A DNA stretch of 15,913 nucleotides from IMG/VR virus record IMGVR_UViG_2909298281_000004. One strand, 5' to 3'. This DNA comes from a virus. Taxonomy: Duplodnaviria > Heunggongvirae > Uroviricota > Caudoviricetes. A program made the position numbers and the translations under genes. Under the pieces are notes generated by a model. It was given only the letters and a program-made list of their open reading frames with translations, made no database searches and was not told where the DNA came from. Numbering within the stretch: position 1 is the stretch's first letter; every line of letters starts with the position of its first letter. Positions 1 to 15,913 of this stretch are shown here, piece by piece.

Positions 1-1053
1 TTACGGGGTAATGCCAACCGCTGCCGCCACTTTGTCGCCACTTGGCAGCGTTGCCAGAGGATTGAAACGGAGCGCCGTTTCCAGATGATCCGGTGCCAGA
101 TGAGCGTAACGCATAGTCATTTTTATATCGTGATGTCCGAGGATTTTTTGCAAAGCAAGGATATTTCCACCCGACATCATGAAATGCGCCGCAAACGTAT
201 GGCGCAGAACGTGTGTCAGTTGACCGCGAGGGAGCACGATTGACGTTTTTTCCATCACGGATAAAAATTGAAAATAGCAGTCTGTGAAGAAATTGAACCC
301 ATCAAGCGCCATGATCTCTTCATAAAGCTCTTTACTGATAGGGATGCTTCTGTTTTTCTTCCCCTTCGTTCTTACAAAGGTAATTCGGTATTTAGTCACC
401 TGTGATCGGGTAAGGTTTATTGCTTCTCGCCAGCGTGCGCCTGTGCTTAAGCATATCTTGACTACCAGTGCCAGAATTGGGTCCTGACGTTTGCAATCAG
501 CCAGCAGTTCAACAATCTGCTCATGGGTAAGCCATGCCATCTCTTTTTCTGCGATGGTGAATTTTCGCATGTTCTCCAGTGGGTTTGGATACGACCATTC
601 GCCCAGGCGGGATAGTTCGCTAAAAACACTACTTAGATAGCTTTGCTCCAGGTTAATGGTGACCGGGCTTGCTCCTTTCTTCCATTTCTCGCTGAAGTAG
701 ATCTCACCTGTCAGGCGTTTATCTCGATAGTGGGCAAACATTTTAGAGGTGAGATCGGTTGCAAGGGGATTGCCCAGAGCGTCAACCATCAACAGCAATT
801 TATCATAGACATGCTGCCCAGCGGTTAGAGATTTACCATGTAGTTTGAACCATAGCTCAACCACGTCTTTCAGTGTTCGACGATCCACTGATTCTCCCAG
901 CCAGGGCTTTGCTTCGGTTTCTTCCATCGTATGGCGCTCAAAAGCCAGAGCTTCGCCTTTGGTGGCGAATTGTTTACGCACACGACGCCCACTACGTCCG
1001 GCGGGGTAACATTCGCAAAGCCATTTTCCTGTGGTGAGTTTTCGTACTGCCAT
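1..1053 (-). CDS. int: Tyrosine integrase, P2/186 family
   Basis: ORF 1..1131(-) has the N-terminal and C-terminal pattern of 186/P2 integrases (MAVRKLTTGKW...KQFATKGEALAFE... and ...LTHVLRHTFAAHFMMSGGNILALQKILGHHDIKMTMRYAHLAP). I place the start at the internal ATG at 1051-1053 (MAVRK), which has a GGAGGG Shine-Dalgarno just upstream on the minus strand. The stop codon is at 1-3, so the gene is complete but attL is outside the window. Confidence 0.85.
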   Translation of the reverse strand: MAVRKLTTGKWLCECYPAGRSGRRVRKQFATKGEALAFERHTMEETEAKPWLGESVDRRTLKDVVELWFKLHGKSLTAGQHVYDKLLLMVDALGNPLATDLTSKMFAHYRDKRLTGEIYFSEKWKKGASPVTINLEQSYLSSVFSELSRLGEWSYPNPLENMRKFTIAEKEMAWLTHEQIVELLADCKRQDPILALVVKICLSTGARWREAINLTRSQVTKYRITFVRTKGKKNRSIPISKELYEEIMALDGFNFFTDCYFQFLSVMEKTSIVLPRGQLTHVLRHTFAAHFMMSGGNILALQKILGHHDIKMTMRYAHLAPDHLETALRFNPLATLPSGDKVAAAVGITP

Positions 1054-1239
1054 AAAAAATGCCCTCCAATAGAGAGCATTTTTACTGTATGTATAACCAG
1101 TGTCAATGTATGAAATCCTGCGACCATACATCTCACTGAAGCCATAATGAAGTTGGCTATTTTTTGCTATGTGAGTATGTGACTTTTGCGGTTAGCCTGC
1201 GACTCATTGTTATATTAGGCGCAGATATAAAAGCAAAAT

Positions 1240-1431
1240 TTATCGCGAGTTTTTAGTACAGATTTTTTTTGATTTACTAATAGTTCCATCATTGCAAACG
1301 AACTTTCCATCGGAGGTACAGTGAGAGACACCTCCCTTTTTCCCAGAACAAGGATAATTTTTAGCATAGGTAGTTAGTGGGTTTAATAACAAAGAGCATG
1401 ATAAAACCACAAAAAATACCTTACCAAGCAT
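1240..1431 (-). CDS. Hypothetical small secreted cysteine-rich protein (63 aa), candidate moron
   Basis: ATG at 1431(-) is preceded by a GGAGG Shine-Dalgarno at about 5 nt spacing. The N-terminus [23 protein letters not shown] looks like a signal peptide, followed by a roughly 40-aa lysine-rich segment with 4 Cys. The locus is markedly AT-rich compared with the tail genes. No homolog recognised. Confidence 0.45.
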
Positions 1432-1446
1432 AGTTTCCTCCCGGTA

Positions 1447-2016
1447 TTACCTAACGTACTTAATTGTTAAACTTATAATTTTCCCAATTATTTCAACATC
1501 TTCTATCTTGCACTCGAAGGCTCTGTTTCCACCTTCAACGAAGATTCTTCCACCGGGTAAACGAGTAATGTCGCGGATTGTTATTTCGCCATCAATACTT
1601 ATTACCCATTTACCGTCACGTATATCATCAAATTCTTTATCACAAATAAATTCAGAATTGTTATCTGTGATGACAAAAGGTTTTTTAAACGTAGAGGGTA
1701 GAAATCCCTTATCAAAAATATAAAAACCGTCTTCACGCAAGGCACCATCAGATAATACATATTTAGCAACTTCCATAGTATTTGTATTACCTGAAGTTTG
1801 CTTTGAACCATGTCCGGTTGTGAGCCAATTAAGCGAGGTGCCCGTTTCAAGGGCGCACTGGATTACCCATTCTGCTGGGAATGAGTCACGCATGTAGCGT
1901 GTGGCGAGTGTACTTTTAGAGATTCCTAAATGATCGCACAACGCCTGTCGAGTTTTGAATCCATAAGCTTCTACCATGCGCTCTATAGCGCCTCGTCCGC
2001 CTTTCTCCAAATTCAT
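1447..2016 (-). CDS. cI: Immunity repressor, 186 CI-like (about 189 aa)
   Basis: 191-aa ORF divergent from the early operon, similar in size to phage 186 CI and much longer than P2 C. The N-terminal region (ERMVEAYGFKTRQALCDHLGISKSTLATRYMRDSFPAEWVIQCALETGTSLNWL) looks like a helix-turn-helix repressor. The ORF track starts at GTG 2022; the ATG at 2014-2016 with an upstream GGAG is the more likely start. Confidence 0.75.
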   Translation of the reverse strand: MNLEKGGRGAIERMVEAYGFKTRQALCDHLGISKSTLATRYMRDSFPAEWVIQCALETGTSLNWLTTGHGSKQTSGNTNTMEVAKYVLSDGALREDGFYIFDKGFLPSTFKKPFVITDNNSEFICDKEFDDIRDGKWVISIDGEITIRDITRLPGGRIFVEGGNRAFECKIEDVEIIGKIISLTIKYVR

Positions 2017-2040
2017 GGTCACTCCAAGTGAACTTTTATC

Positions 2041-2069
2041 TTGACGATTTCACTGTGCGATCGTATGTT
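2041..2069 (+). promoter_or_regulatory. Candidate early rightward promoter pR (sigma70-like) for the apl-cII operon
   Basis: TTGACG at 2041-2046, a 17-nt spacer, then TATGTT at 2064-2069, about 70 bp upstream of the apl/cox start. GTGAAC (2028-2033) and GTTCAC (2076-2081) form an inverted pair flanking it, with a TTCAC half-site at 2049-2053; these may be operator half-sites. Confidence 0.4.
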
Positions 2070-2141
2070 TATGGTGTTCACAAAATACAAACGATCCGTA
2101 TTCGTCCTGATTAATCATCATTAAACGAGGAATGTTGCATC

Positions 2142-2363
2142 ATGAGACCTAACATTTCAATCACTCTTACCACGCCTCATGTGACTATTGAACGCTATAG
2201 CGAGCTGACAGGGCTGTCCATCGATACCATCAATGACATGTTGGCTGACGGACGCCTTATCCGTCACCGTCTGCGCAAAGATAAAAAACGTGAAAAAGTG
2301 ATGATCAACATAGCAGCCATGACCGTTGATGCGCTTTCAGAATGCAATCTAAACCTTAATTAG
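2142..2363 (+). CDS. Apl/Cox-like excisionase and early-switch regulator (73 aa)
   Basis: First gene of the rightward operon, divergent from cI, small and basic. The call rests on position in the P2/186 genetic switch, not on recognised sequence identity. Confidence 0.55.
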
Positions 2364-2395
2364 TTCGATTCTGAAATACATCAGAGGCATTGACC

Positions 2396-2905
2396 ATGTT
2401 TGATTACCAAGTTTCCAAACATCCACATTTTGATGAAGCCTGTCGTGCATTCGCATTGCGCCACAACCTAGTGCAACTGGCAGAACGTGCAGGCATGAAT
2501 GTGCAGATTCTGCGGAACAAGCTGAACCCAGCTCAACCTCATTTATTAACCGCACCAGAAATCTGGTTGCTTACCGATCTGACTGAAGATTCAACGCTGG
2601 TAGATGGCTTTCTGGCACAGATTCACTGCCTGCCATGTGTACCGATTAATGAGGTGGCAAAAGAGAAACTGCCGCATTACGTCATGAGTGCAACTGCAGA
2701 GATAGGGCGTGTCGCGGCAGGTGCGGTTTCTGGCGATGTAAAAACCAGTGCAGGCCGTCGTGATGCGATCAGCAGCATTAACTCTGTTACACGACTGATG
2801 GCGCTGGCTGCTGTTTCATTGCAGGCCCGTTTACAGGCTAATCCTGCGATGGCGAGTGCAGTTGATACCGTGACTGGCCTCGGTGCTTCATTCGGTTTGC
2901 TGTGA
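2396..2905 (+). CDS. cII: CII-like lysogeny-establishment activator (169 aa)
   Basis: Second gene of the early operon. Using the ATG at 2396 (AGAGG Shine-Dalgarno 8 nt upstream) gives 169 aa, the size I recall for 186 CII. Assignment is by position and size. Confidence 0.6.
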
Positions 2906-2912
2906 GGTGCTT

Positions 2913-3113
2913 ATGCTGACGAAAGAACCATCATTTGCATCGCTGCTGGTAAAACAAAGTCCGGCAATGCACTACGGTCACGGCTGGATCATGGGTGAGG
3001 ATGGTAAACGCTGGCATCCGTGCCGTTCACAAGATGAATTGCTGGCAGAACTATCTACGAAAAAACGGGGGAACAAATGGCTATTGAAGGCGCTGCGGCG
3101 ACTGTTCCATTAA
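2913..3113 (+). CDS. Small early protein, possibly Fil-like (about 66 aa)
   Basis: ORF 2883..3113; the likely start is the ATG at 2913 (MLTKEPSF...) preceded by GAGGTG. It sits where 186 carries fil, directly after cII. Function not established from sequence. Confidence 0.45.
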   Translation: MLTKEPSFASLLVKQSPAMHYGHGWIMGEDGKRWHPCRSQDELLAELSTKKRGNKWLLKALRRLFH

Positions 3114-3418
3114 GACCCGGTGAACGCCTGAATGGACTTAATCATATTGCGGAGTTAAGGGCGAAAGTTTTTGGTTTGAATATTGAGTCAGAGCTTGAGC
3201 GGTTTATTAAAGATATGCGTGATCCTCGGGATATCAATAATGAACAAAATAAACGGGCACTGGCTGCCATATTCTTTATGGCAAAAATTCCAGCTGAACG
3301 TCATAGCATCAGCATTAATGAGCTGACCACTGACGAAAAGCGGGAGTTGATTAAAGCAATGAATCATTTTCGTGCAGTGGTGAGCTTATTTCCCAGACGG
3401 CTAACCATGCCGAATTAA
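3077..3418 (+). CDS. Hypothetical early-region protein (113 aa), possibly Dhr-like
   Basis: ORF overlapping the end of the preceding gene as in a translationally coupled operon. No motif recognised; the position matches 186 dhr. Confidence 0.45.
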   Translation: MAIEGAAATVPLRPGERLNGLNHIAELRAKVFGLNIESELERFIKDMRDPRDINNEQNKRALAAIFFMAKIPAERHSISINELTTDEKRELIKAMNHFRAVVSLFPRRLTMPN

Positions 3419-3485
3419 CCAACTAATGAAATTAATGGCGTAAACCCGCCGGGCATCCCTTTATCTAAATTCAGGAGAATTGCTT

Positions 3486-3719
3486 ATGCGTAATATTGAA
3501 ACCCTCACGACCAAAACCGGACCGGATGATGCAGGTCTTAATCTTTTACTGACAGAGGCTCGTCTGGAAGAACGCCGGGCAAGGGCTGAAGCAATGGCTG
3601 CTCGCCTCGATAGCTTGGCGTGTCATATCACCTCCCGCCAGCTAAACCACGTCGAAGCGGCAGAACTGCTGCGTGTGACTGCTGAAGCAATCCAGAACGA
3701 AGCGCAGGAGATCCACTGA
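3486..3719 (+). CDS. Hypothetical small early protein (about 77 aa)
   Basis: ATG at 3486 with AGGAG at 3473-3477. The protein is charged and predicted helical (LEERRARAEAMAARL). Its stop overlaps the next start (ATGA at 3716-3719). Confidence 0.5.
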   Translation: MRNIETLTTKTGPDDAGLNLLLTEARLEERRARAEAMAARLDSLACHITSRQLNHVEAAELLRVTAEAIQNEAQEIH

Positions 3720-3946
3720 TGGCTGATGCAATGGATCTCGTACAGCAGCGCGTTGAAGAAGAACGCCAACGCCATATCCGTGCTGCCCGTGCCAAAACGC
3801 CGGGCGTGTCCCGCGTGCTTTGCGTTGAGTGTGAAGCGCCAATTCCGCCAGCACGCCGCCGTGCCATTCCGGGTGTGCAGCTTTGCATTACCTGTCAGGA
3901 AATCGCAGAGCTGAAAGGCAAACATTACAACGGAGGTGCTGTATGA
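3719..3946 (+). CDS. TraR/DksA-family C4 zinc-finger protein (75 aa)
   Basis: Contains CVEC-x17-CITC, a four-cysteine zinc finger in a small protein, typical of phage TraR-like proteins. AGGAG lies 8 nt upstream. Confidence 0.7.
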   Translation: MADAMDLVQQRVEEERQRHIRAARAKTPGVSRVLCVECEAPIPPARRRAIPGVQLCITCQEIAELKGKHYNGGAV

Positions 3947-4153
3947 GCACCATCCTGAAATGGGCAGGAAATAAAACCGCCATAATGTCCGAACTGAAAA
4001 AGCATCTTCCTGCTGGCCCGCGACTGGTTGAACCTTTCGCGGGTTCCTGTGCAGTGATGATGGAGACGGATTATCCCAGCTATCTTGTTGCGGATATTAA
4101 TCCTGATTTAATCAACCTCTATAAAAAGGTTGCTGCTGATTGTGAGGCGTTTA
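3943..4153 (+). pseudogene. Phage dam-like N6-adenine DNA methyltransferase, N-terminal about 70 codons, truncated by IS1
   Basis: ILKWAGNK...LVEPFAGSCAVMMETDYPSYLVADINPDLINLY aligns with the N-terminus of Dam-family methyltransferases (E. coli Dam: FLKWAGGK...LVEPFVGAGSVFLNTDF..ILADINSDLISLY). The reading frame runs into the IS1 left end and stops at 4156-4158. Confidence 0.75.
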
Positions 4154-4208
4154 GGTGATGCTGCCAACTTACTGATTTAGTGTATGATGGTGTTTTTGAG
4201 GTGCTCCA

Positions 4209-4484
4209 GTGGCTTCTGTTTCTATCAGCTGTCCCTCCTGTTCAGCTACTGACGGGGTGGTGCGTAACGGCAAAAGCACCGCCGGACATCAGCGCTATCT
4301 CTGCTCTCACTGCCGTAAAACATGGCAACTGCAGTTCACTTACACCGCTTCTCAACCCGGTACGCACCAGAAAATCATTGATATGGCCATGAATGGCGTT
4401 GGATGCCGGGCAACTGCCCGCATTATGGGCGTTGGCCTCAACACGATTTTACGTCACTTAAAAAACTCAGGCCGCAGTCGGTAA
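4209..4484 (+). CDS. insA: IS1 InsA
   Basis: 91-aa [46 protein letters not shown]... matches IS1 InsA as remembered. Confidence 0.9.
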
Positions 4485-4906
4485 CCTCGCGCATACAGCC
4501 GGGCAGTGACGTCATCGTCTGCGCAGAAATGGACGAACAGTGGGGATACGTCGGGGCTAAATCGCGCCAGCGCTGGCTGTTTTACGCGTATGACAGGCTC
4601 CGGAAGACGGTTGTTGCGCACGTATTCGGTGAACGCACTATGGCGACGCTGGTGCGTCTTATGAGCCTGCTGTCACCCTTTGACGTGGTGATATGGATGA
4701 CGGATGGCTGGCCGCTGTATGAATCCCGCCTGAAGGGAAAGCTGCACGTAATCAGCAAGCGATATACGCAGCGAATTGAGCGGCATAACCTGAATCTGAG
4801 GCAGCACCTGGCACGGCTGGGACGGAAGTCGCTGTCGTTCTCAAAATCGGTGGAGCTGCATGACAAAGTCATCGGGCATTATCTGAACATAAAACACTAT
4901 CAATAA
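4403..4906 (+). CDS. insB: IS1 InsB reading frame (expressed as InsAB' transposase by -1 frameshift)
   Basis: ORF with ...[18 protein letters not shown]...[12 protein letters not shown]..., characteristic of IS1 InsB. The A6C slippery run lies at 4460-4466 near the end of insA. Confidence 0.85.
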
Positions 4907-4921
4907 GTTGGAGTCATTACC

Positions 4922-5175
4922 AGCATGGCGCAGTCCACTTTTTTAGGAAAAGGGATGCTGAATGTAATTCTCATTGTTTGCGTCGATAATGTCGGCGTAA
5001 CCGCACCACGACCATATTGCAGGATTTTCCCGTTGGGTAATTTCATCCATCCATCACCACTGGCAAAAGAGGCCATGTCCGGTATCTGATTTTCCCCTGT
5101 CCCCACATCCCGTTTTGCCGCTTCTCCCAAACCAACGTTTAAGAAAATGCAGAGGTAACAGCTAACTGGCATCAT
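4922..5175 (-). pseudogene. Fragment of a tail-fibre variable segment (alternative C-terminal cassette), truncated by IS1
   Basis: The minus-strand ORF starts at 5175 and runs into the IS1 right end. It contains DGWMKLPNGKILQYG, which resembles the motif I recall at the start of variable C-terminal domains of Mu/P1/e14-type tail fibres. It is opposite in orientation and adjacent to the invertase, as S'v is to gin in Mu. Confidence 0.4.
5122..5147. other. Candidate Gin/Hin/Pin-type recombination crossover site (single copy)
   Basis: TTCTCCCAAACC-AA-CGTTTAAGAAAA is a 26-bp imperfect dyad resembling hixL (TTCTTGAAAACC AA GGTTTTTGATAA) and gix sites as recalled. It lies just inside the 5' end of the tail-fibre fragment, about 55 bp from pin. 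No partner site is present in the window. Confidence 0.35.
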
Positions 5176-5202
5176 CTCCGGTTTTTATTCAGGGGGATGA
5201 TC

Positions 5203-5769
5203 ATGCTTATTGGCTATGTACGCGTGTCAACAAATGACCAGAACACCGATTTGCAACGTAATGCACTGAACTGCGCGGGATGTGAGCGGATTTTTGAGGA
5301 CAAAATCAGTGGCACTAAGTCCGACAGACCGGGGCTGAAAAAACTACTCAGGACACTATCGGCAGGAGACACGCTGGTTGTCTGGAAGCTGGACAGGTTG
5401 GGGCGCAGTATGCGGCATCTTGTTACGCTGATAGAAGAGTTGCGCCAGCGTGGTGTGAATTTCAGAAGCCTGACTGACAGTATTGATACCAGTACCCCAA
5501 TGGGCCGTTTCTTTTTTCATGTCATGGGTGCCCTGGCTGAAATGGAACGCGAACTGATAGTTGAACGTACCAGGGCAGGGCTGGCTGCAGCTCGTGCCAA
5601 AGGCAGAGTAGGTGGACGCCGTCCTAAGTTGACCACCGAACAGTGGGCACAGATTGGGCGTTTACTCGAGGCCGGAGAATCAATACAGCGTATTGCACTG
5701 ATTTTTGATGTAGGCGTTTCTACCATTTATAGAAAATTTCCGGCAAATAAGATCAATGAATCCCCCTGA
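5203..5769 (+). CDS. pin: Serine DNA invertase, Gin/Pin/Hin/Cin family
   Basis: MLIGYVRVSTNDQNTDLQRNAL...LVVWKLDRLGRSMRHL...FRSLTDSIDTSTPMGRFFFHVMGALAEMERELI..., near-identical in pattern to Mu Gin with the catalytic Ser in YVRVSTNDQ. Start chosen at ATG 5203 (GGGGG 6 nt upstream) rather than the ORF-track ATG at 5197. Confidence 0.9.
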   Translation: MLIGYVRVSTNDQNTDLQRNALNCAGCERIFEDKISGTKSDRPGLKKLLRTLSAGDTLVVWKLDRLGRSMRHLVTLIEELRQRGVNFRSLTDSIDTSTPMGRFFFHVMGALAEMERELIVERTRAGLAAARAKGRVGGRRPKLTTEQWAQIGRLLEAGESIQRIALIFDVGVSTIYRKFPANKINESP

Positions 5770-5817
5770 ATCAGCATTATGTTGATTATCCCTGCAAGCA
5801 GACAAATACCGTTATTT

Positions 5818-5835
5818 TGTGTGAATAACGACACA
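5818..5835 (+). promoter_or_regulatory. Candidate Ogr-dependent late promoter element (TGT-N12-ACA) upstream of the tail operon
   Basis: TGT at 5818-5820 and ACA at 5833-5835 are separated by 12 nt, centred about 85 bp upstream of the FI ATG. This is the dyad that P2-type late promoters carry near -55. It sits within a larger palindrome CGTTATTttgtgtgAATAACG (5810-5830). Confidence 0.45.
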
Positions 5836-5911
5836 ACTGCGCTTAGCTGTTTGTCAGGCACAATCACTTCAACATAGGGCGAAGCCTAATCCAATCAGGA
5901 GGTTCGCCACT

Positions 5912-7084
5912 ATGGCTCAGGATTACCACCACGGGGTGCGCGTTGTTGAAGTCAACGAAGGCACCCGATCTATTACCACGGTGAGCACCGCCATCGTGGG
6001 TATGGTCTGCACGGGCGATGATGCCGATGCAAAAATGTTTCCTCTTAATAAACCCGTGCTGATCACTGATGTGCTGACTGCCAGCGGTAAAGCGGGTGAG
6101 TCAGGTACTCTGGCCCGTTCGCTGGATGCCATCGCTGACCAGGCAAAACCCGTGACCATTGTTGTGCGTGTGCCGCAGGGTGAAACGGAAGACGAAACCA
6201 CGACCAATATCATCGGCGCAGTGACTGCTGAAGGTAAAAAAACAGGTATGAAAGCCCTGTTATCTGCCCAGTCACAGCTCGGCGTTAAACCGCGCATTCT
6301 CGGCGTGCCAGGCCACGACACCAAGGCGGTAGCTACTGAGTTGCTGAGCGTGGCGCAAAGCCTGCGTGGATTTGCTTACCTGTCAGCGTATGGCTGCAAG
6401 ACAGTGCAGGAGGCGATCACTTACCGCGAAAACTTCAGCCAGCGCGAAGGGATGCTGATCTGGCCTGACTTTACTGGCTGGGACACGGTGCTGAATGCCG
6501 AAGCAACGGCATATGCCACCGCCCGTGCGCTTGGTCTGCGCGCCAAAATTGACGAGCAGACCGGATGGCACAAAAGCCTGTCCAACGTGGGCGTGAACGG
6601 TGTCACCGGAATTTCTGCAGATGTGTTCTGGGATCTGCAGGACCCGGCAACCGATGCAGGTCTGCTGAACCAGAACGACGTCACCACGCTTGTGCGTAAA
6701 GACGGTTTCCGCTTCTGGGGTTCCCGCTGCCTGAGTGATGACCCGCTCTTTGCCTTCGAAAACTACACCCGCACGGCGCAGGTGCTGATGGACACGATGG
6801 CAGAAGCACACATGTGGGCGGTGGATAAACCGCTTAACCCGTCGCTGGCCCGCGACATTATCGAAGGTATCCGCGCCAAAATGCGCAGCCTGGTCAGTCA
6901 GGGCTATCTCATTGGTGGTGATTGCTGGCTGGATGAGTCGGTGAACGACAAAGACACGCTGAAAGCCGGAAAACTCACCATCGACTACGACTACACGCCA
7001 GTGCCGCCACTTGAAAACCTGATGCTGCGTCAGCGCATCACCGATCAGTACCTGGTGAATTTCGCCAGCCAGGTCAGCGCGTAA
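5912..7084 (+). CDS. FI: Contractile tail sheath protein (P2 FI-like, 390 aa)
   Basis: [19 protein letters not shown]...[15 protein letters not shown]...[25 protein letters not shown]...[24 protein letters not shown] aligns along its length with P2 gpFI as remembered. CAGGAGG Shine-Dalgarno upstream. Confidence 0.92.
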
Positions 7085-7093
7085 GGGGACAAC

Positions 7094-7609
7094 ATGGCTT
7101 TACCACGCAAATTAAAACACCTGAACCTGTTTAACGACGGGAACAACTGGCAGGGGATCGTTGAGTCGCTGACGCTGCCGAAATTTACCCGCAAATATGA
7201 GAAGTATCGCGGCGGCGGAATGCCGGGTGCGGTGGATGTGGATCTGGGGCTTGATGACAGTGCGCTGGACACAGAATTTTCCATTGGTGGTACTGAATTG
7301 CTGCTGTTTAAACAGATGGGTAAAGCCACGGTGGATGGCATCCAGCTGCGCTTTACCGGCTCTATTCAGCGTGACGATACCGGGGAAGTGCAGGCCGTGG
7401 AGCTTGTCGTGCGTGGACGTCACAAAGAAGTGGATTCCGGCGAGTGGAAGACGGGCGAAAGCAACACCACCAAAGTGACCAGTACCAACAGCTACGCGAA
7501 GCTGACCATCAATGGTGAGGTGCTCTATGAAGTGGACCTTATCAACATGGTGGAAATTGTGGACGGTGTGGACCTGATGGAAGCGCACCGCAACGCCCTC
7601 GGCCTCTGA
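7094..7609 (+). CDS. FII: Tail tube protein (P2 FII-like, 171 aa)
   Basis: Immediately downstream of the sheath gene with the size and position of P2 gpFII; begins MALPRKLKHLNLFNDG. Confidence 0.88.
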   Translation: MALPRKLKHLNLFNDGNNWQGIVESLTLPKFTRKYEKYRGGGMPGAVDVDLGLDDSALDTEFSIGGTELLLFKQMGKATVDGIQLRFTGSIQRDDTGEVQAVELVVRGRHKEVDSGEWKTGESNTTKVTSTNSYAKLTINGEVLYEVDLINMVEIVDGVDLMEAHRNALGL

Positions 7610-7663
7610 TATATCTGAACGGCGCGGGATACCGCGCCAGAACCCAATTGACAGGACAGCAAA

Positions 7664-7966
7664 ATGAGCGATAAGCAGACTGAAAAGACCATTCAACTGG
7701 ATACCCCCATCAAGCGCGGTAAAACAGAAATCACCGAAATTGTGCTGCGTAAACCGCAGTCCGGTGCGCTGCGCGGTACACGCCTGCAGGCCATTATGGA
7801 TATGGATGTGAACGCGATGATGACCGTGATCCCCCGCATCTCCAGTCCGGCACTGACTGCACAGGAAATTGCAGAGATGGACCCGGCAGATCTCACTGCC
7901 ATGTCGGTTGAGGTTGTCACTTTTTTGTTGAAGAAGTCGGTGCTTGCCGGTTTACCGACAGCCTGA
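7664..7966 (+). CDS. E: Tail assembly chaperone E (P2 gpE-like)
   Basis: Small ORF between tube and tape-measure genes. It contains the slippery heptamer T_TTT_TTG at 7921-7927 and stops at 7964-7966. Confidence 0.85.
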   Translation: MSDKQTEKTIQLDTPIKRGKTEITEIVLRKPQSGALRGTRLQAIMDMDVNAMMTVIPRISSPALTAQEIAEMDPADLTAMSVEVVTFLLKKSVLAGLPTA

Positions 7967-8100
7967 CGGTTGACGATCTGGTGGCAGATATCGCCACCAT
8001 TTTTCACTGGCCGCCATCCGTTACTGACGTTATGCCGCTGACCGAAGTGCTGGAATGGCGGTATAAAGCGATTCAGAGAAGCGGGGCCAACGATGAGTGA
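7664..8100 (+). CDS. E+E' tail assembly chaperone made by programmed -1 frameshift
   Basis: After a -1 slip at 7921-7927 the frame stays open to TGA at 8098-8100, overlapping the T start at 8093. This matches the conserved gpE/gpE+E' arrangement of P2-like phages. Predicted from sequence, not shown experimentally. Confidence 0.7.
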
Positions 8101-11100
8101 TAACAACCTGCGTCTGCGGGTCATTCTTAATGCGGTTGACAAGCTCACCCGCCCATTTCGATCTGCGCAGGCCAGTTCAAGAGAACTGGCTGCTGCTGTC
8201 AAAAAATCCCGCGATGCAATAAAGCAGCTTGATCAGGCCGGGAGCAGTCTGGACAGCTTCCGAAAGCTGCAGGCAGAAAATCAGAAATTAGGCGACAGGC
8301 TGAACTATGCCCGCCAGCGTGCAAATTTGCTCAGTCAGGAACTGGGAGCGATGGGGCCGCCTTCGCAACGTCAGGTTGTTGCTCTGGGCCGTCAACGGCT
8401 GGCTGTTCAGCGCCTGGAAGAACGCCAGAAAAAGCTGCAGCAGCAGACGGCGCTTGTGCGTGCTGAACTGTACCGGGCGGGAATTTCTGCGAAAGACGAT
8501 GCGGGAGCAACTGCCCGTTTAGCCCGTGAAACATCACGTTATAACCAGGAACTTTCGAAACAGGAGGCGCGGCTGAAGCGACTGGGGGAAGCTCAGCGCA
8601 GGATGAATGCAGCGCGTGCCAGTTATGCCCGTTCGCTGGAGGTGCGTGATCGTATTGCAGGTGCCGGAGCCACCACCACGGCTGCAGGGCTGGCAATGGG
8701 TGCGCCAGTGATGGCGGCAGTAAAAAGCTATACCAGCATGGAAGATGCCATGAAAGGTGTGGCAAAGCAGGTCAATGGTCTGCGTGACGATAATGGCAAC
8801 CGCACTGCACGTTTTTATGAAATGCAGGATGCCATCAAGGCTGCCAGCGAACAGTTGCCGATGGAAAACGGTGCGGTGGACTTCGCTGCACTGGTTGAAG
8901 GTGGTGCGCGCATGAACGTCGCAAACCCTGACGACAGCTGGGAAGATCAGAAACGTGACCTGCTGGCCTTCGCCAGTACGGCAGCAAAGGCGGCAACAGC
9001 CTTTGAGCTGCCAGCGGATGAACTGTCAGAAAGTCTGGGGAAAATCGCCCAGCTCTACAAAATCCCCACCCGCAATATTGAACAGCTCGGTGATGCGCTG
9101 AACTATCTGGATGATAACGCCATGTCGAAAGGGGCAGACATCATTGATGTGATGCAACGTCTGGGCGGTGTGGCTGACCGTCTGGATTATCGTAAAGCGG
9201 CGGCGCTGGGTTCCACCTTCCTGACACTGGGCGCTGCGCCAGAGGTTGCAGCCAGTGCAGCAAACGCGATGGTGCGTGAATTGTCCATTGCCACCATGCA
9301 AAGCAAGAGTTTCTTTGAAGGGATGAATCTGCTGAAACTCAATCCTGAAGTGATTGAAAAGCAGATGACGAAGGATGCGATGGGAACCATCCAGCGCGTG
9401 CTGGAGAAGGTAAACGCGCTGCCGCAGGACAAGCGCCTGTCTGCCATGACTATGTTGTTTGGTAAAGAGTTTGGCGATGACGCGGCGAAACTGGCAAACA
9501 ACCTGCCGGAACTGCAGCGTCAGTTAAAACTGACAGCGGGCAATGATGCGCTCGGCTCCATGCAGAAAGAATCCGACATCAACAAAGACTCACTTTCTGC
9601 TCAGTGGTTGCTGGTCAAAACCGGAGCGCAGAACACCTTCAGCAGCCTGGGCGAAACGCTGCGCCAGCCGCTGATGGATATTCTGTACACGGTGAAAAGC
9701 GTCACGGGGGCGTTGCGTCGCTGGGTGGAAGCTAACCCGGAACTGACAGGCACACTGATGAAAGCATCGGCTGTTGTGGCTGCGGTTACCGTCGGCCTCG
9801 GCACCTTAGCGGTGGCGCTGGCTGCAGTGCTGGGGCCGCTGGCAGTGATCCGTCTGGGATTCTCTGTGTTGGGTATCAAAACGTTATCTTCCGTTACGGC
9901 AGCAGTAACTCGAACCAGCAGCGCGTTGTCCTGGCTGGCTGGCGCACCACTGGCACTGCTGCGACGCGGGCTTGCTTCATCGGGCAACGCCGCAGGTTTA
10001 CTTACTGCGCCGTTGTCGTCTTTGCGCCGCACGGCATCACTGACGGGAAATGTCCTGAAAACTGTAGCAGGTGCGCCGGTTGCACTTTTGCGGTCTGGAT
10101 TATCCGGTTTACGTGCTGTTGCTGTGATGTTTATGAATCCTCTGGCGGTACTGCGCGGTGGACTGGCCGCCGCAGGCACGGTGCTGCGAGTACTGGCATC
10201 TGGTCCACTGGCGATGCTGCGCGTTGCCCTGTATGCCATATCTGGTCTGTTAGGTGCTCTGCTCAGTCCGATAGGTCTTGTGGTTACTGCACTGGCGGGC
10301 GTGGCGCTGGTTGTCTGGAAATACTGGCAACCCATCACCGCATTTCTCGGTGGCGTGGTGGAAGGATTCAAAGCGGCGGCAGGTCCCATCAGTGCAGCGT
10401 TCGAACCGCTTAAGCCCGTGTTCCAGTGGATTGGCGACAAAGTGCAGGCGCTGTGGGGCTGGTTTACTGATCTGCTGACGCCCGTTAAGTCGACCTCTGC
10501 CGAACTGCAGAGCGCAGCGGCAATGGGGCGGCGATTCGGGGAGGCACTGGCGGAAGGGCTGAATATGGTCATGCATCCGCTGGACTCCCTGAAATCCGGC
10601 GTTTCCTGGTTGCTGGAGAAGCTCGGCATTGTCAGTAAAGAGGCCGCAAAGGCAAAACTGCCGGAAAGCGTGACGCGTCAGCAACCTGCGACGGTGAATG
10701 CAGACGGTAAAGTGATGATGCCATCGGGTGGTTTTCCATCATGGGGATATGGCTTTGCGGGGATGTATGACAGCGGCGGGTATATCCCGCGCGGGCAGTT
10801 TGGCATCGTCGGTGAAAACGGGCCGGAAATTGTTAACGGCCCGGCAAATGTGACCAGCCGGAGAAATACAGCTGCACTGGCTGCCGTTGTTGCCGGAATG
10901 ATGGGCGTTGCTGCCGCGCCAGCAGAGCTTCCACCGTTGCACCCTTTGGCACTTCCCGCGAAAGGTGGAGAAGCAATTGTGAGTCGCGCAGCCACTGTGC
11001 CGCTCGTTCAACGGATTGAGGCACCGACGCAGATCATCATTCAGACGCAGCCAGGACAAAGTGCGCAGGATATTGCGCGGGAGGTGGCACGCCAGCTTGA

Positions 11101-11170
11101 TGAACGTGAACGCAGGCTGAAGGCAAAAGCCAGGAGTAACTACAGCGATCAGGGGGGATACGACGCATGA
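8093..11170 (+). CDS. T: Tail tape measure protein (P2 gpT-like, 1025 aa)
   Basis: Very long ORF after E/E' with an N-terminal coiled-coil-like region, a hydrophobic Ala/Leu-rich repeat region and a C-terminal domain; its position is conserved in P2. Confidence 0.9.
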   Translation: MSDNNLRLRVILNAVDKLTRPFRSAQASSRELAAAVKKSRDAIKQLDQAGSSLDSFRKLQAENQKLGDRLNYARQRANLLSQELGAMGPPSQRQVVALGRQRLAVQRLEERQKKLQQQTALVRAELYRAGISAKDDAGATARLARETSRYNQELSKQEARLKRLGEAQRRMNAARASYARSLEVRDRIAGAGATTTAAGLAMGAPVMAAVKSYTSMEDAMKGVAKQVNGLRDDNGNRTARFYEMQDAIKAASEQLPMENGAVDFAALVEGGARMNVANPDDSWEDQKRDLLAFASTAAKAATAFELPADELSESLGKIAQLYKIPTRNIEQLGDALNYLDDNAMSKGADIIDVMQRLGGVADRLDYRKAAALGSTFLTLGAAPEVAASAANAMVRELSIATMQSKSFFEGMNLLKLNPEVIEKQMTKDAMGTIQRVLEKVNALPQDKRLSAMTMLFGKEFGDDAAKLANNLPELQRQLKLTAGNDALGSMQKESDINKDSLSAQWLLVKTGAQNTFSSLGETLRQPLMDILYTVKSVTGALRRWVEANPELTGTLMKASAVVAAVTVGLGTLAVALAAVLGPLAVIRLGFSVLGIKTLSSVTAAVTRTSSALSWLAGAPLALLRRGLASSGNAAGLLTAPLSSLRRTASLTGNVLKTVAGAPVALLRSGLSGLRAVAVMFMNPLAVLRGGLAAAGTVLRVLASGPLAMLRVALYAISGLLGALLSPIGLVVTALAGVALVVWKYWQPITAFLGGVVEGFKAAAGPISAAFEPLKPVFQWIGDKVQALWGWFTDLLTPVKSTSAELQSAAAMGRRFGEALAEGLNMVMHPLDSLKSGVSWLLEKLGIVSKEAAKAKLPESVTRQQPATVNADGKVMMPSGGFPSWGYGFAGMYDSGGYIPRGQFGIVGENGPEIVNGPANVTSRRNTAALAAVVAGMMGVAAAPAELPPLHPLALPAKGGEAIVSRAATVPLVQRIEAPTQIIIQTQPGQSAQDIAREVARQLDERERRLKAKARSNYSDQGGYDA
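9932..10262 (+). repeat. Degenerate tandem peptide repeats inside the tape-measure gene (about five copies of PLAxLRxGL)
   Basis: The translation shows APLALLRRGLAS / APLSSLRRTASL / APVALLRSGLSG / NPLAVLRGGLAA / GPLAMLRVALYA in series. Coordinates are approximate. Confidence 0.5.
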
Positions 11171-11652
11171 TGATGGTGCTGGGATTGTACGTGTTTATGC
11201 TGCGCACCGTTCCGTATCAGGAACTGCAGTATCAACGCAGCTGGCGACATGCGGCAAACAGTCGGGTAAACCGACGTCCGTCCACGCAGTTTCTGGGACC
11301 GGAAAACGACATGCTGACGCTTTCCGGTGTTCTTATGCCGGAAATAACAGGCGGCAGGCTGTCGTTGCTGGCACTGGAGCAGATGGCAGAACAGGGGAAA
11401 GCATGGCCCCTGATTGAAGGCAGCGGCACGATTTACGGCATGTATGTGATTGAGGGACTGAATCAGACTAAAACGGAGTTTTTCCGCGATGGTATGCCGC
11501 GCCGGATTGAGTTCACCCTGTCGCTCAAACGGGTGGATGAATCCCTGTCCGATATGTTCGGTGATCTCAGTGCGCAGCTGAATAATTTGCAGGATACGAC
11601 AACGTCTGCCTTAAGCGATATCAGTAAAACGGTGGGAGGGCTGCTGTCGTGA
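11167..11652 (+). CDS. U: Tail protein U (P2 gpU-like, 161 aa)
   Basis: ATGA overlap with the T stop; size and position match P2 gpU. Confidence 0.85.
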   Translation: MMMVLGLYVFMLRTVPYQELQYQRSWRHAANSRVNRRPSTQFLGPENDMLTLSGVLMPEITGGRLSLLALEQMAEQGKAWPLIEGSGTIYGMYVIEGLNQTKTEFFRDGMPRRIEFTLSLKRVDESLSDMFGDLSAQLNNLQDTTTSALSDISKTVGGLLS

Positions 11653-12749
11653 ATTTCAGCTCTGAACTGCTTAACAAAGGCAACAAAACTCCGGCATTCA
11701 GCATCAGTATTGAGGGTAAGGATATCACCACTGTGCTGGATAACCGCCTGATGAGTCTGACGCTGACGGACAATCGGGGCTTTGAAGCGGACCAGCTTGA
11801 TCTGGAGCTGGACGACGCCGACGGAAAAATCGTGCTGCCGCGCCGTGGTGCGGTCATTACGCTGGCGTTGGGCTGGAAGGGGCAGTCGCTTTTCCCGAAA
11901 GGAGCATTCACGGTGGACGAGATTGAACACACTGGCGCACCGGACCGCCTGACTATCCGGGCGCGAAGTGCTGATTTTTGTGAAACCCTGAATATCCGCC
12001 GTGAAAAATCGTGGCACAAGACCACCGTTGGGGAAGTGGTGAAGGAAATAGCTGTGCGGCACAAACTGAAGATGGCATTGGGTGAAGACCTGTCGGATAA
12101 ACCTGTGGAGCATATAGACCAGACCAATGAGAGTGACGGCAGTTTTCTGATGCGGCTGGCGCGCCAGTACGGTGCTATTGCGTCGGTGAAAAATGGCAAT
12201 CTGTTATTCATCCGGCAGGGACAGGGTAAAAGCGCCAGCGGTAAACCACTACCGGTTATCACTATCACACGTAAGGACGGCGACAGTCACCGCTTTACCC
12301 TGGCAGATCGCGGAGCCTACACGGGCGTAATTGCCAGCTGGTTGCATACCCGCGAACCCGCGAAGAAAGAAAGCACCACGGTGAAGCGTAAGCGCAGGAC
12401 TAAGAAGCAGAAGAAAGAGCCGGAAGCGAAGCAGGGCGATTACCTGGTGGGTACAGATGAAAACGTGCTGGTACTTAATCGCACCTATGCCAACCGGAGC
12501 AACGCCGAACGGGCGGCGAAAATGCAGTGGGAACGCCTGCAACGTGGCGTTGCGTCATTCTCGCTACAACTGGCAGAAGGTCGGGCGGATCTCTACACGG
12601 AAATGCCAGTGAAAGTCAGAGGCTTTAAACAGCCGATAGATGATGCGGAATGGACTATTACCACCCTGACGCATACTGTCAATCCGGATAACGGTTTTAC
12701 GACCAGTCTGGAGCTTGAAGTGAAGATTAATGATTTCGAAATGGAATGA
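11649..12749 (+). CDS. D: Tail protein D (P2 gpD-like, 366 aa)
   Basis: GTG start overlapping the U stop, with GGGAGGG upstream. It is the last late gene before ogr, as in P2. Confidence 0.85.
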   Translation: MNFSSELLNKGNKTPAFSISIEGKDITTVLDNRLMSLTLTDNRGFEADQLDLELDDADGKIVLPRRGAVITLALGWKGQSLFPKGAFTVDEIEHTGAPDRLTIRARSADFCETLNIRREKSWHKTTVGEVVKEIAVRHKLKMALGEDLSDKPVEHIDQTNESDGSFLMRLARQYGAIASVKNGNLLFIRQGQGKSASGKPLPVITITRKDGDSHRFTLADRGAYTGVIASWLHTREPAKKESTTVKRKRRTKKQKKEPEAKQGDYLVGTDENVLVLNRTYANRSNAERAAKMQWERLQRGVASFSLQLAEGRADLYTEMPVKVRGFKQPIDDAEWTITTLTHTVNPDNGFTTSLELEVKINDFEME

Positions 12750-12839
12750 TTCTTCGTAATAGAGAACTTTTAAGTTTTCAAAATGGAATAATGCGGTATC
12801 ATTATTGTGAATTTAGCAAAAATGGGGAGAACTCGAAAA

Positions 12840-13058
12840 ATGATGATTTGCCCACTGTGTGGAAGTGCCGCCCATACTCGCAGCAGTTTTCAGGTATCTT
12901 CATTGACCAAAGAGCGTTACAACCAGTGCCAGAACATTAACTGCAGCCATACTTTTGTTACCCATGAAACTTTTGTTCGTTCGATTGCAACGCCAAAAGA
13001 GTCAAATCCGGTTCAGCCGCATTCAATGAAATCAGGACAGGTGGCGCTCTCTCTTTGA
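12840..13058 (+). CDS. ogr: Ogr/Delta-type zinc-finger late-gene transcriptional activator
   Basis: MMICPLCGSAAHTRSS...KERYNQCQNINCSHTF matches the P2 Ogr pattern (CPLC...KERYHQCQNVNC). The ORF track extends to GTG 12807; I prefer the ATG at 12840 by analogy with P2 Ogr, which begins MFHCPLC. Confidence 0.8.
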   Translation: MMICPLCGSAAHTRSSFQVSSLTKERYNQCQNINCSHTFVTHETFVRSIATPKESNPVQPHSMKSGQVALSL

Positions 13059-13138
13059 CTCTGCCGCCAATTTGTCGCCATCGTTAAAAAACAGTGCTTC
13101 TAACATCATGATTTTAAACGGCATAAATTTCAGGCAAC

Positions 13139-13181
13139 AAAAAACCCATCAACCTTGAACCGAAATGGCGGGGTTGATGGG
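13139..13181 (-). terminator. Candidate Rho-independent terminator downstream of ybjL (minus strand)
   Basis: CCCATCAACC (13145-13154) pairs with GGTTGATGGG (13172-13181), and the plus-strand A-run at 13139-13144 gives a T-run 3' of the stem on the minus strand. It lies about 110 nt past the ybjL stop. The loop is long (17 nt), which weakens the call. Confidence 0.4.
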
Positions 13182-13293
13182 CTCCACAAAATGGGGACAT
13201 CAAAGAAAAGCAGTGGCACTAATTAAGACTGATGCCCTGCGGAAAAGTTCTGCGGTTGTGCAAAAAAATTTCATTTTCAGGGCAACTTCAGTT

Positions 13294-14979
13294 TTATCCT
13301 AATCCTGGCCATACCATGACGATGATTGTCCCTGCCAGCGTCAGCAGGACGTTGGCGATTGCGTAGGTGCCCGCGTAGCCCAGCGCAGGGATGTTACTGC
13401 GAGCTGTATCACTGATGATCTCCATTGCCGGCGCGCAGGTGCGTGCGCCCATCATTGCGCCGAACAACAGTGCGCGGTTCATTCGCAATACATAAGCACC
13501 GAACAAGAAACAGATAACCACGGGCACAAGACTGACAATTAATCCGGCAATCAACATCTGACCGCCAATCGCGCCCAGGCCGTTATTAATACCGCTACCG
13601 GCGCTCAGACCAACGCCTGCCATAAACACCATCAAGCCGAACTCTTTCACCATGCTTAATGCACCTTGCGGAATGTAACCGAAGGTCGGGTGGTTAGCAC
13701 GCATAAAGCCCAGCATAATTCCGGCGAATAACAACCCGGCAGCGTTCCCCATGCCGAAACTGAATGTGCTGAACTGGAAGGTGATCATCCCGATCATCAG
13801 CCCAATAACAAAGAAGGCGCAAAATGCCAGCAGGTCAGTGACCTGGCTGTGAATCGAGATAAAGCCGATGCGATCGGCGATGGTTTTTACGCGACGGGCA
13901 TCACCGCTGACTTGTAAAACGTCACCTTTGTTAAGCACGACGTTGTCATCTATCGGCATCTCAATCTGGCTACGAATGACGCGGTTAAGGAAGCAACCGT
14001 GATCGGTCAACTTCAGTTGTGCGAGACGTTTACCTACAGCGTTATGGTTTTTAACGACCACTTCTTCAGTGACGATACGCATGTCGAGAAGGTCACGATC
14101 GAAAACTTCTTTACCGTTACGGAAGCTGGGATCGAGTCGGGCATGGGCGTCGGGATAGCCTACCAACGCTATTTCATCGCCCATTTGTAGCACGGCATCA
14201 CCGTCTGGATTTGCCAGAATCCCGTTACGTCGAATACGTTCAATGTAGCAGCCGGTTTGTCGATAAATACCCAGTTCACGCAGATTTTTGCCGTCGGTCC
14301 AGGCCACCAGCTCCGGGCCGACGCGATAGGCGCGGATCACCGGTAAATAAACCTTACGGTTGGCATCAGTGTCCAGGCCACGTTCGCGGGCGATTTGCTG
14401 GGCGCTGGTCTGTAAGTCCTGATGCTGCAATTTCGGCAAGTAACGCGCACCAACAATCAAACTCACCAGACCGATTAAATAGGTTAAGGCATACCCGAGG
14501 CTCAGATTATCCAGTGCCAGTGAGAGCTGCCTGCTTTCCATGCCGGAATGACGCAGTGTATCGCCAGCACCGACCAGAACCGGTGTCGACGTCATAGAGC
14601 CTGCTAACATACCGGCCGTCAGGCCAATATCCCAGCCAAACAGCTTACCTAACCCTAAGGCGATCACCAGCGCACTGCCAACCATCACCAGTGCTAACAT
14701 TAGGTAATTTTTCCCATCGCGAAAAAAAATGGAAAAAAAGTTCGGTCCGGCTTCGACCCCGACGCAGAAAATAAACAGCATAAAGCCAAGATTAAGCGCA
14801 TCGGTGTTAATGCTGAAATGTTGTTGGCCTAATAACAGCGATACGACTAAAACGCCAATGGAATTACCCAGTTGGATCGAACCAAGTCGTAACTTTCCGA
14901 GACATAGCCCAAGCGCGAGGACCACAAATAATAACAGAATGTAATTCCCATTTAACAATTCGGCGACGTTTATATTCAC
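13294..14979 (-). CDS. ybjL: Putative transport protein YbjL (YidE/YbjL family, 561 aa)
   Basis: The 561-aa polytopic membrane protein [51 protein letters not shown]... matches E. coli YbjL as remembered. Confidence 0.9.
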
Positions 14980-15248
14980 GGAGGCTAACTTCTTGTTTAC
15001 TAGTAAGCTGTTGAAAGAAATGGTAATTTACGATAATGTTTTTTACCAGAATTCAGGGCGCAGATTCATTCAGCGCACCTAAACGATAGTAAAGTAACAA
15101 TATATTTTACTAGTGTAATCACATTAGGTATCAACGGCTATATGAATTGCGTTGGCCTATATTAGCATGGAATGCGAAGCGGCTTTATCTTACTGAACGC
15201 CACACTGGCGAAAAATGTGTTCGATAGACGCAGTGTCAGGAGGAACGA

Positions 15249-15626
15249 GTGAAACATAAACAACGTTGGGCGGGGGCAATCTGCTGTTTTGTCCTCTTCA
15301 TTGTGGTGTGCCTTTTTCTGGCGACGCACATGAAAGGCGCTTTTCGGGCTGCCGGGCATCCTGAAATCGGCTTGCTATTTTTCATTCTTCCTGGAGCAGT
15401 CGCCAGCTTCTTTTCACAGCGTAGAGAAGTCCTGAAACCTCTGTTTGGCGCAATGCTGGCGGCACCCTGTTCGATGCTCATTATGCGGCTGTTTTTTTCA
15501 CCGACGCGCTCATTCTGGCAAGAGCTGGCATGGTTACTAAGCGCGGTGTTCTGGTGTGCGCTGGGGGCACTGTGTTTCTTATTTATCAGTAGTTTGTTTA
15601 AACCACAGCACAGAAAAAATCAGTAA
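15249..15626 (+). CDS. ybjM: Inner membrane protein YbjM (125 aa)
   Basis: GTG start with AGGAGG 5 nt upstream; hydrophobic 125-aa protein at the position of ybjM between ybjL and grxA. Confidence 0.8.
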   Translation: MKHKQRWAGAICCFVLFIVVCLFLATHMKGAFRAAGHPEIGLLFFILPGAVASFFSQRREVLKPLFGAMLAAPCSMLIMRLFFSPTRSFWQELAWLLSAVFWCALGALCFLFISSLFKPQHRKNQ

Positions 15627-15646
15627 AGCCCTCAACGCGAGGGCTT
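15626..15646 (-). terminator. Candidate terminator hairpin between convergent ybjM and grxA
   Basis: AAGCCCTC-aacgc-GAGGGCTT stem-loop; on the minus strand it is followed by TACTGATTTTTT, so it may terminate grxA. Confidence 0.3.
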
Positions 15647-15655
15647 GTCAGACGA

Positions 15656-15913
15656 TCAGGCGTCCAGATTTTCTTTCACCCATGCAGCAAAATCGGTATA
15701 GCCGCCGATATGTTGCTGATCGACAAAAATCTGCGGCACGGTTTCTACGGGTTTACCTGCCTTTTGTTGTAGATCTTCTTTAGTGATCCCTTCCGCACGA
15801 ATATCTACATACTGATACTGAAAATCATCGCGTTCATTGCTCAATTTCTCAGCCAGATCTTTTGCACGCACACAGTAAGGGCAACCCGAACGACCAAAAA
15901 TAACGGTTTGCAT
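15656..15913 (-). CDS. grxA: Glutaredoxin 1
   Basis: 85-aa MQTVIFGRSGCPYCVRAKDLAEKL... with the CPYC active site matches E. coli GrxA. The start codon is the last three bases of the window, so the promoter is outside it. Confidence 0.92.
   Translation of the reverse strand: MQTVIFGRSGCPYCVRAKDLAEKLSNERDDFQYQYVDIRAEGITKEDLQQKAGKPVETVPQIFVDQQHIGGYTDFAAWVKENLDA

Follow-up and report, generated by a model that had tools for sequence, protein, structure and literature searches.

The stretch of DNA analysed here (15,913 nucleotides, hereafter the window) is 100% identical to the chromosome record CP024252.1, from position 2,317,430 on. The record belongs to ETEC strain D181 (O182:H21, ST4493, phylogroup B1; strain table in PMC8281228). 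From left to right, the window carries an integrase gene, a lysogeny and early region (a YdcA-like gene, CI, a 73-aa ORF, CII, Fil, DUF5347, DUF2732 and TraR/DksA), a dam fragment, an IS1 element, a short minus-strand ORF, a serine invertase gene, the tail genes for sheath, tube, E, tape measure, U and D, and ogr, after which the host genes ybjL, ybjM and grxA close it. The features on which the analysis rests are:

1-1053, minus strand: prophage integrase, 350 aa, at the left prophage end (called gene with Int_N and Phage_integrase Pfam matches)
1447-3946, CI on the minus strand: intact 186-type lysogeny/early region with CI, 73-aa ORF, CII, Fil, DUF5347, DUF2732 and TraR/DksA (Pfam on called genes)
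3943-4153, plus strand: truncated phage dam (D12 adenine methylase), 211 of 855 nt kept (PF02086 positions 1-69 of 253, E = 4.9e-20)
4154-4921, plus strand: complete IS1, IS1A-like, 768 bp, with canonical ends and no target-site duplication
4922-5175, minus strand: remnant of an alternative tail-fibre C-terminal cassette (Gp53-like_C), 84 of 136 codons, C-terminus gone (PF21882 positions 1-35 of 84, E = 1.7e-6)
5122-5147, plus strand: sole surviving invertase crossover site TTCTCCCAAACCAACGTTTAAGAAAA, 26 bp (two inverted copies in intact relatives, one in the window)
5203-5769, plus strand: serine DNA invertase, 188 aa, gene intact (Resolvase and HTH_7 Pfam matches)
5912-12749, plus strand: tail operon with sheath FI, tube FII, E, tape measure T, U and D (ORF lengths, Pfam)
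12840-13058, plus strand: ogr/delta late-gene activator at the right prophage end (PF04606 on the called gene)
13294-14979, minus strand: host gene ybjL, the usual right neighbour of the prophage (same arrangement in OkiPb01711, 372_BP0083, XH988, 95-3322 and APEC O78)

A 186-type lysogeny module, P2-type tail genes and ogr are all present (Phage_CI_repr, Phage_CP76 for CII, Phage_186_Fil, Phage_sheath_1, Phage_tube, Phage_P2_GpU, Phage_GPD and Ogr_Delta), which makes the prophage a member of the 186/P2-type group (Peduoviridae); its nucleotide identity to records of P2-like phages is 93-99%. An earlier note, made from the letters of the window, had called it "P2/186". The first half of this label does not apply, since CI, CII and Fil identify the 186 type rather than P2 proper. 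The same note had listed the lysogeny genes, the sheath-tube-tape-measure-U-D operon and ogr as survivors, and their lengths indeed equal those in intact prophages: the lysogeny and early genes are as long as in the intact prophage of XH988, and FI, FII, E, T, U and D encode the same 390, 171, 100, 1025, 161 and 366 aa. The borders are likewise those of intact lysogens, with rcdA to the left of the integrase gene (outside the window, at a distance of 104 bp in CP024252.1) and ybjL to the right of ogr. Further to the left of rcdA, also outside the window, ybjJ (locus L006 4126-5253) is called with 375 aa in D181 versus 1209 nt (402 aa) elsewhere among the strains examined, which may reflect the choice of start codon or a genuine 5' change.

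Members of the IS1 family are about 768 bp long and end in imperfect inverted repeats of about 23 bp. The element in the window starts with GGTGATGCTGCCAACTTACTGAT and ends with ATCAATAAGTTGGAGTCATTACC, and its inverted repeats (4154-4176 and 4899-4921) match at 18 of the first 23 positions when GGTGATGCTGCCAACTTACTGAT is compared with GGTAATGACTCCAACTTATTGAT, the reverse complement of the right end. Both insA (4209-4484) and the insB frame (4403-4906) are open, an A6C frameshift motif lies at 4460-4466, and the called genes match the Pfam families Zn_ribbon_InsA, HTH_Tnp_IS1 and DDE_Tnp_IS1, as expected of an IS1 transposase. Relative to copies annotated as IS1A in RefSeq, the element has 2 mismatches (99.7% identity). 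Near full-length copies of IS1 occur in 4,951 of 5,426 complete E. coli genomes, at a median of 11 places per genome, and a copy identical to that in the window was found in none of the 5,426. Two substitutions set it apart from the widespread IS1A variant, at IS1 positions 372 and 500 (window 4525 and 4653). Because these two central positions are the only differences from the common variant, the comparison shows no hybrid pattern and the element gives no chimeric signal.

A simple IS1 insertion leaves an 8-9 bp direct duplication of its target. Here, the 9 bp to the left of the element, AGGCGTTTA (4145-4153), and the 9 bp to its right, AGCATGGCG (4922-4930), are unlike, and re-reading the same bases confirmed what had been claimed earlier. 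We moved either end of the element by up to 6 bp and tried lengths of 6-14 bp; no duplication appeared at any offset or length tried, the best correspondence being 5 of 8 matching bases, so that a cryptic repeat does not emerge once the ends are shifted. With the same definition of the ends, four simple IS1 insertions show exact duplications, one in G5 (9 bp), one in QDFD216 (8 bp) and two in CFSAN051542 (8 bp and 9 bp). The absence of a duplication in D181 is thus real and not the product of misplaced ends. IS1 copies in B-1109 and in strain 10, flanked by unrelated genes, also lack one. The absent duplication is a sign of rearrangement after insertion and no argument against the element being IS1.

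The left junction falls within a phage dam-like gene, as had been proposed, and the match to PF02086 covers the first 69 of 253 profile positions. The resulting product has 71 aa, of which the first 70 residues derive from the methylase, and its reading frame ends at the TGA at 4156-4158, 5 nt inside IS1. In relatives the intact gene measures 855 nt, and past the breakpoint it runs on as TATCTCGTGCC... in XH988.

The right junction had been placed in a tail-fibre fragment. This holds, and the Gp53-like_C match allows a more precise description: the fragment is a minus-strand alternative C-terminal cassette of an invertible segment. The remnant is collinear with a 136-aa gene of 372_BP0083 and OkiPb01711. 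In XH988 the cassette lies in the opposite orientation; window 4922-5135 matches XH988 on the opposite strand, and the strand switch falls at 5121-5135. The segment therefore flips in nature. In intact relatives, two inverted 26-bp crossover sites lie ~1.9 kb apart. The window keeps the invertase-proximal one, and its missing partner belongs inside the tail-fibre gene H, within the deleted DNA. The arrangement resembles the Hin/Gin/Cin switches of Mu, P1 and P2-like phages, in which a serine invertase adjoins alternative tail-fibre C-terminal cassettes flanked by inverted crossover sites of 26 bp, and both orientations are seen among the relatives of the D181 prophage. Unlike those switches, which combine an invertase with two inverted sites, the window has lost one crossover site together with the constant part of the fibre gene. 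Since the partner site is gone, the intact invertase would be unable to flip anything at this locus, and the tail-fibre switch of D181 is probably frozen, its invertase being left without a second site to act on.

How much DNA is missing between the two junctions? As references we used the intact prophages at rcdA/ybjL in OkiPb01711, isolate 372_BP0083, XH988 and 95-3322. Aligned to OkiPb01711 and 372_BP0083, the two arms of the window (1-4153 and 4922-15913) share one orientation, and the alignments stop exactly at the IS1 ends, the left arm running up to 4153 and the right arm starting from 4922. The missing DNA amounts to 21,962 bp relative to OkiPb01711, to 22,145 bp relative to 372_BP0083 and to ~22,364 bp relative to XH988 when the flipped segment is allowed for; a comparison with phage KP12 gives ~21 kb. 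In every reference the interval holds the rest of dam, a replication endonuclease, a DinI-like gene and variable cargo genes, followed by the genes for portal, terminase subunits, scaffold, capsid, head completion, holin, lysozyme and spanins, and by those for tail completion, baseplate V, W, J and I, and the tail fibre H with its assembly genes. Among the called genes and ORFs of the window we found no replication, packaging, head, lysis or baseplate gene, all of which are present in the relatives, so the prophage lacks a full functional set. The cos site would be lost as well, because in P2 and 186 it adjoins the portal gene, which is gone.

The alignment of both flanks to intact relatives thus puts 21,962-22,364 bp between the breakpoints. 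It bears out the earlier statement that dam and the tail-fibre region are separated by replication, capsid, lysis, baseplate and fibre genes that are absent here, with cos included by its known position. In no related phage does dam lie directly beside the invertase region. Judged from these sequence comparisons, collinear flanks in the same orientation, with the intervening DNA absent and the outer borders undisturbed, confirm an IS-associated internal deletion. We rejected an inversion or translocation in place of a loss, because the arms are collinear in the comparison with OkiPb01711 and 372_BP0083 and the prophage keeps its usual neighbours, rcdA and ybjL.

As a separate observation, the cargo genes that relatives carry in this interval resemble anti-phage defence genes and encode, for example, an AAA ATPase with an HNH protein, AIPR, TIR-domain, GmrSD and SEFIR-domain proteins (L005 19058-23220; L007 10881-12229; L009 22027-23802; L010 10875-12617; L013 1273-2712). 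They sit between the DinI-like gene and the portal gene or between the tail completion genes and baseplate V, positions that fit known cargo hotspots of P2.

Is the same junction, or a step on the way to it, preserved elsewhere? Probes of 140 nt across each junction had no match in the 5,426 complete E. coli genomes. The sole match in several pieces was B-1109, in which the IS1 lies another 86 bp into dam. The GTDB species representatives contained neither junction as an exact pattern, and JGI metagenome contigs lacked the pattern for the right junction. In an exact-protein index, the dam'-IS1 fusion product occurred on one contig only, the source, and the minus-strand cassette remnant had no record; looking up the 54-aa plus-strand ORF at 4925-5089 turned up nothing further apart from the intact prophage of UMNK88. 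As neither junction recurs in the complete genomes or the species representatives, nor the right one in the metagenomes, the deletion looks strain-specific. The comparison of strains at this locus that the earlier note had called for yielded intact prophages, and neither a second IS1 copy nor a direct undeleted ancestor among complete E. coli genomes. APEC O78, with a left arm 99.95% identical to that of the window, was considered as such an ancestor and discarded, as it carries a different deletion of its own. The collections searched, including the 5,426 complete genomes, contained no ancestor or intermediate with IS1 at one junction and a duplication, or with two IS1 copies. This limits what can be said about the route and does not affect the deletion itself.

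A lone complete IS1 with no duplication forms the joint; each arm extends to one of its ends, and the outer limits of the prophage are unchanged. At the level of the sequence, the deletion is therefore IS1-associated. Our main reading, to which we give a probability of roughly one half, is that ~22 kb of the interior of a 186-type prophage between rcdA and ybjL was lost in an IS1-driven event, by adjacent deletion from a single IS1, and that the element in the window marks the scar. On this account, one IS1 would have inserted into the prophage, more likely in dam. One end of the element would then have targeted another site on the same DNA molecule, within the tail-fibre cassette, in an intramolecular or 'abortive' transposition. 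This second step would remove everything from that end of IS1 to its new target site, together with one copy of the original duplication, and would leave a lone IS1 with two non-matching flanks. The model cited for deletions by IS1 is abortive transposition, and large deletions of a similar kind, associated with IS1, have been described in clinical E. coli (PMC10569738). Those deletions resemble that of D181 in the lone complete IS1 at the junction, in starting from an IS1 end, in the lack of a duplication and in the loss of tens of kb. Unlike them, D181 lost the interior of a prophage and not chromosomal genes under selection, and we infer its one-IS1 route, as well as the order of the two junctions, rather than observe them. 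IS1 adjacent deletions are a classical observation from the gal region.

The same scar would result if two IS1 copies had inserted independently in the same orientation, one into dam and the other into the tail-fibre cassette, and had then undergone homologous recombination. This would loop out the 22 kb and one IS1 and keep the left flank of the first insertion and the right flank of the second. The earlier note had named both mechanisms side by side, and the complete IS1, the lack of a duplication and the ~22 kb gone agree with either. That they leave identical scars speaks against singling out the one-IS1 route, and we regard recombination between two copies as a serious possibility, if short of an even chance. 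IS1 is abundant in E. coli, as its median copy number indicates, and has entered such prophages repeatedly, namely in dam (B-1109), in the tail-fibre assembly genes or the invertible segment (G5, CFSAN051542) and beside the invertase gene (QDFD216). However, this route requires two insertions in the same orientation followed by recombination, compared with one insertion and one intramolecular event for the adjacent deletion. Neither presumed parental insertion occurs in the 5,426 complete genomes, and the IS1 of the window is no mosaic of two variants, though identical parents would leave none. We slightly favour the adjacent deletion by a single IS1 for three weak reasons: it needs fewer events, the dam breakpoint lies in more AT-rich DNA than the cassette breakpoint, and another IS1 lies in dam of B-1109. 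IS1 favours AT-rich targets; the surroundings of the dam breakpoint have 41% G+C versus 55% at the cassette breakpoint, a weak pointer to dam as the site of the first insertion.

Two real copies of IS1 might have been collapsed into one during assembly of CP024252.1, with the DNA between them dropped. Repeats are a classic cause of such collapses and one assembly is the sole record of the junction, but we consider this very improbable: the record is a closed 4.89-Mb chromosome, the genome was presumably assembled from long reads, which easily span a 768-bp repeat, and the artefact would still demand two IS1 copies at exactly these positions, an arrangement that none of the 5,426 other genomes searched contains. 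Alternatively, the 22 kb might have gone first, by some other route, and IS1 might then have inserted in the simple way into the shortened prophage, the duplication having been erased later by mutation. Deletions free of IS elements do occur in this prophage, as in APEC O78, where a portal fragment is joined to a tape-measure fragment. Against this stand the best match of 5 of 8 bases between the flanks at any offset, the fact that the alignment of each arm to intact references ends at an IS1 end, and the agreement of both flanks with these references right up to the IS1 ends, from which it follows that the flanks are unmutated. The best match and the unmutated flanks effectively refute this explanation, to which we attach next to no probability.

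The two arms of the window have different nearest relatives. Window 1-4153 differs from the complete prophage of XH988 at one base (99.98%), and the left arm with its host flank is ~100% identical to XH988, APEC O78 and 95-3322, whose right arms are 91-98% identical to the window. The right arm (4922-13000) is 99.6-100% identical to 372_BP0083, whose left arm reaches 94-97%. No genome matching both arms was found among the matches listed. These identities raise the possibility that IS1 joins the arms of two different 186/P2-type prophages, for example those of a tandem double lysogen at rcdA/ybjL or of an IS1-guided exchange with a second phage. In the tandem form, the deletion would begin in dam of one prophage and end in the cassette of the next, and would span ~56 kb instead of 22 kb. 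Such a union would change what was deleted and not the chemistry of IS1, and it overlaps with both IS1 routes. We nevertheless judge it unlikely. With two thirds of the prophage missing, a single mosaic switch would land in the deleted part in ~65% of cases by chance, and XH988, 95-3322 and APEC O78 share the left arm yet differ from one another in the right arm. Arm exchange is thus common in this phage group without any IS1, and ordinary phage mosaicism would be the simplest reading of the differing relatives. Were the two arms indeed of separate parentage, the immunity region and the tail module of the remnant would differ in origin.

Other prophages at the same site have decayed as well. 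Those of APEC O78, B-1109 and QDFD216 share with D181 the rcdA/ybjL site, the 186/P2-type family and an internal loss of structural or replication genes, and all their breakpoints differ from those of D181. The deletion in APEC O78 is IS-free and joins the portal fragment directly to the tape-measure fragment (L007 12270-13201). B-1109 has, like D181, an IS1 in dam, but at its more distal position and joined to the region upstream of mdfA. Its IS1 copies without duplication lie at L001 2112-2879 and 13165-13932; a unit IS1-mdfA...rcdA-int...dam' recurs every 11,053 bp as a tandem repeat, and the final rcdA lies directly against ybjL, the right prophage arm being absent. In QDFD216 (L013 3776-9771, at the ybjL site), IS903B, a hypothetical gene, a glycosyltransferase and GtrA pair and the IS1 with its 8-bp duplication replace the genes from head to fibre. 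At another site, ssrA, a related prophage in CFSAN051542 carries multiple deletions and IS1 copies. As a lead only, we also liken the D181 remnant to the defective P2-related prophage of E. coli B, a P2-family prophage inactivated in a laboratory or natural E. coli lineage rich in IS1; a search of the literature for an IS1 deletion in that prophage returned nothing usable.

In summary, IS1 deletions and IS-driven prophage decay are already well known, and D181 provides one strain-specific, routine example. Its value lies mainly in annotation; it opens no new biological question and is of little wider interest. The case also illustrates that an IS copy lacking a target duplication reliably points to a rearrangement. 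The D181 prophage should be labelled defective, as it has no genes for replication, cos/packaging, head, lysis, baseplate or fibre, and its invertase should be labelled orphaned. Going by its gene content, the remnant would be unable to replicate, to package DNA, to build heads or baseplates or to lyse its host, and the remaining block of tail genes cannot form a tail by itself. The CI repressor appears intact, so the remnant may still express immunity to 186-type phages. D181 adds one more case to the several independent routes by which this prophage family decays at one chromosomal site.
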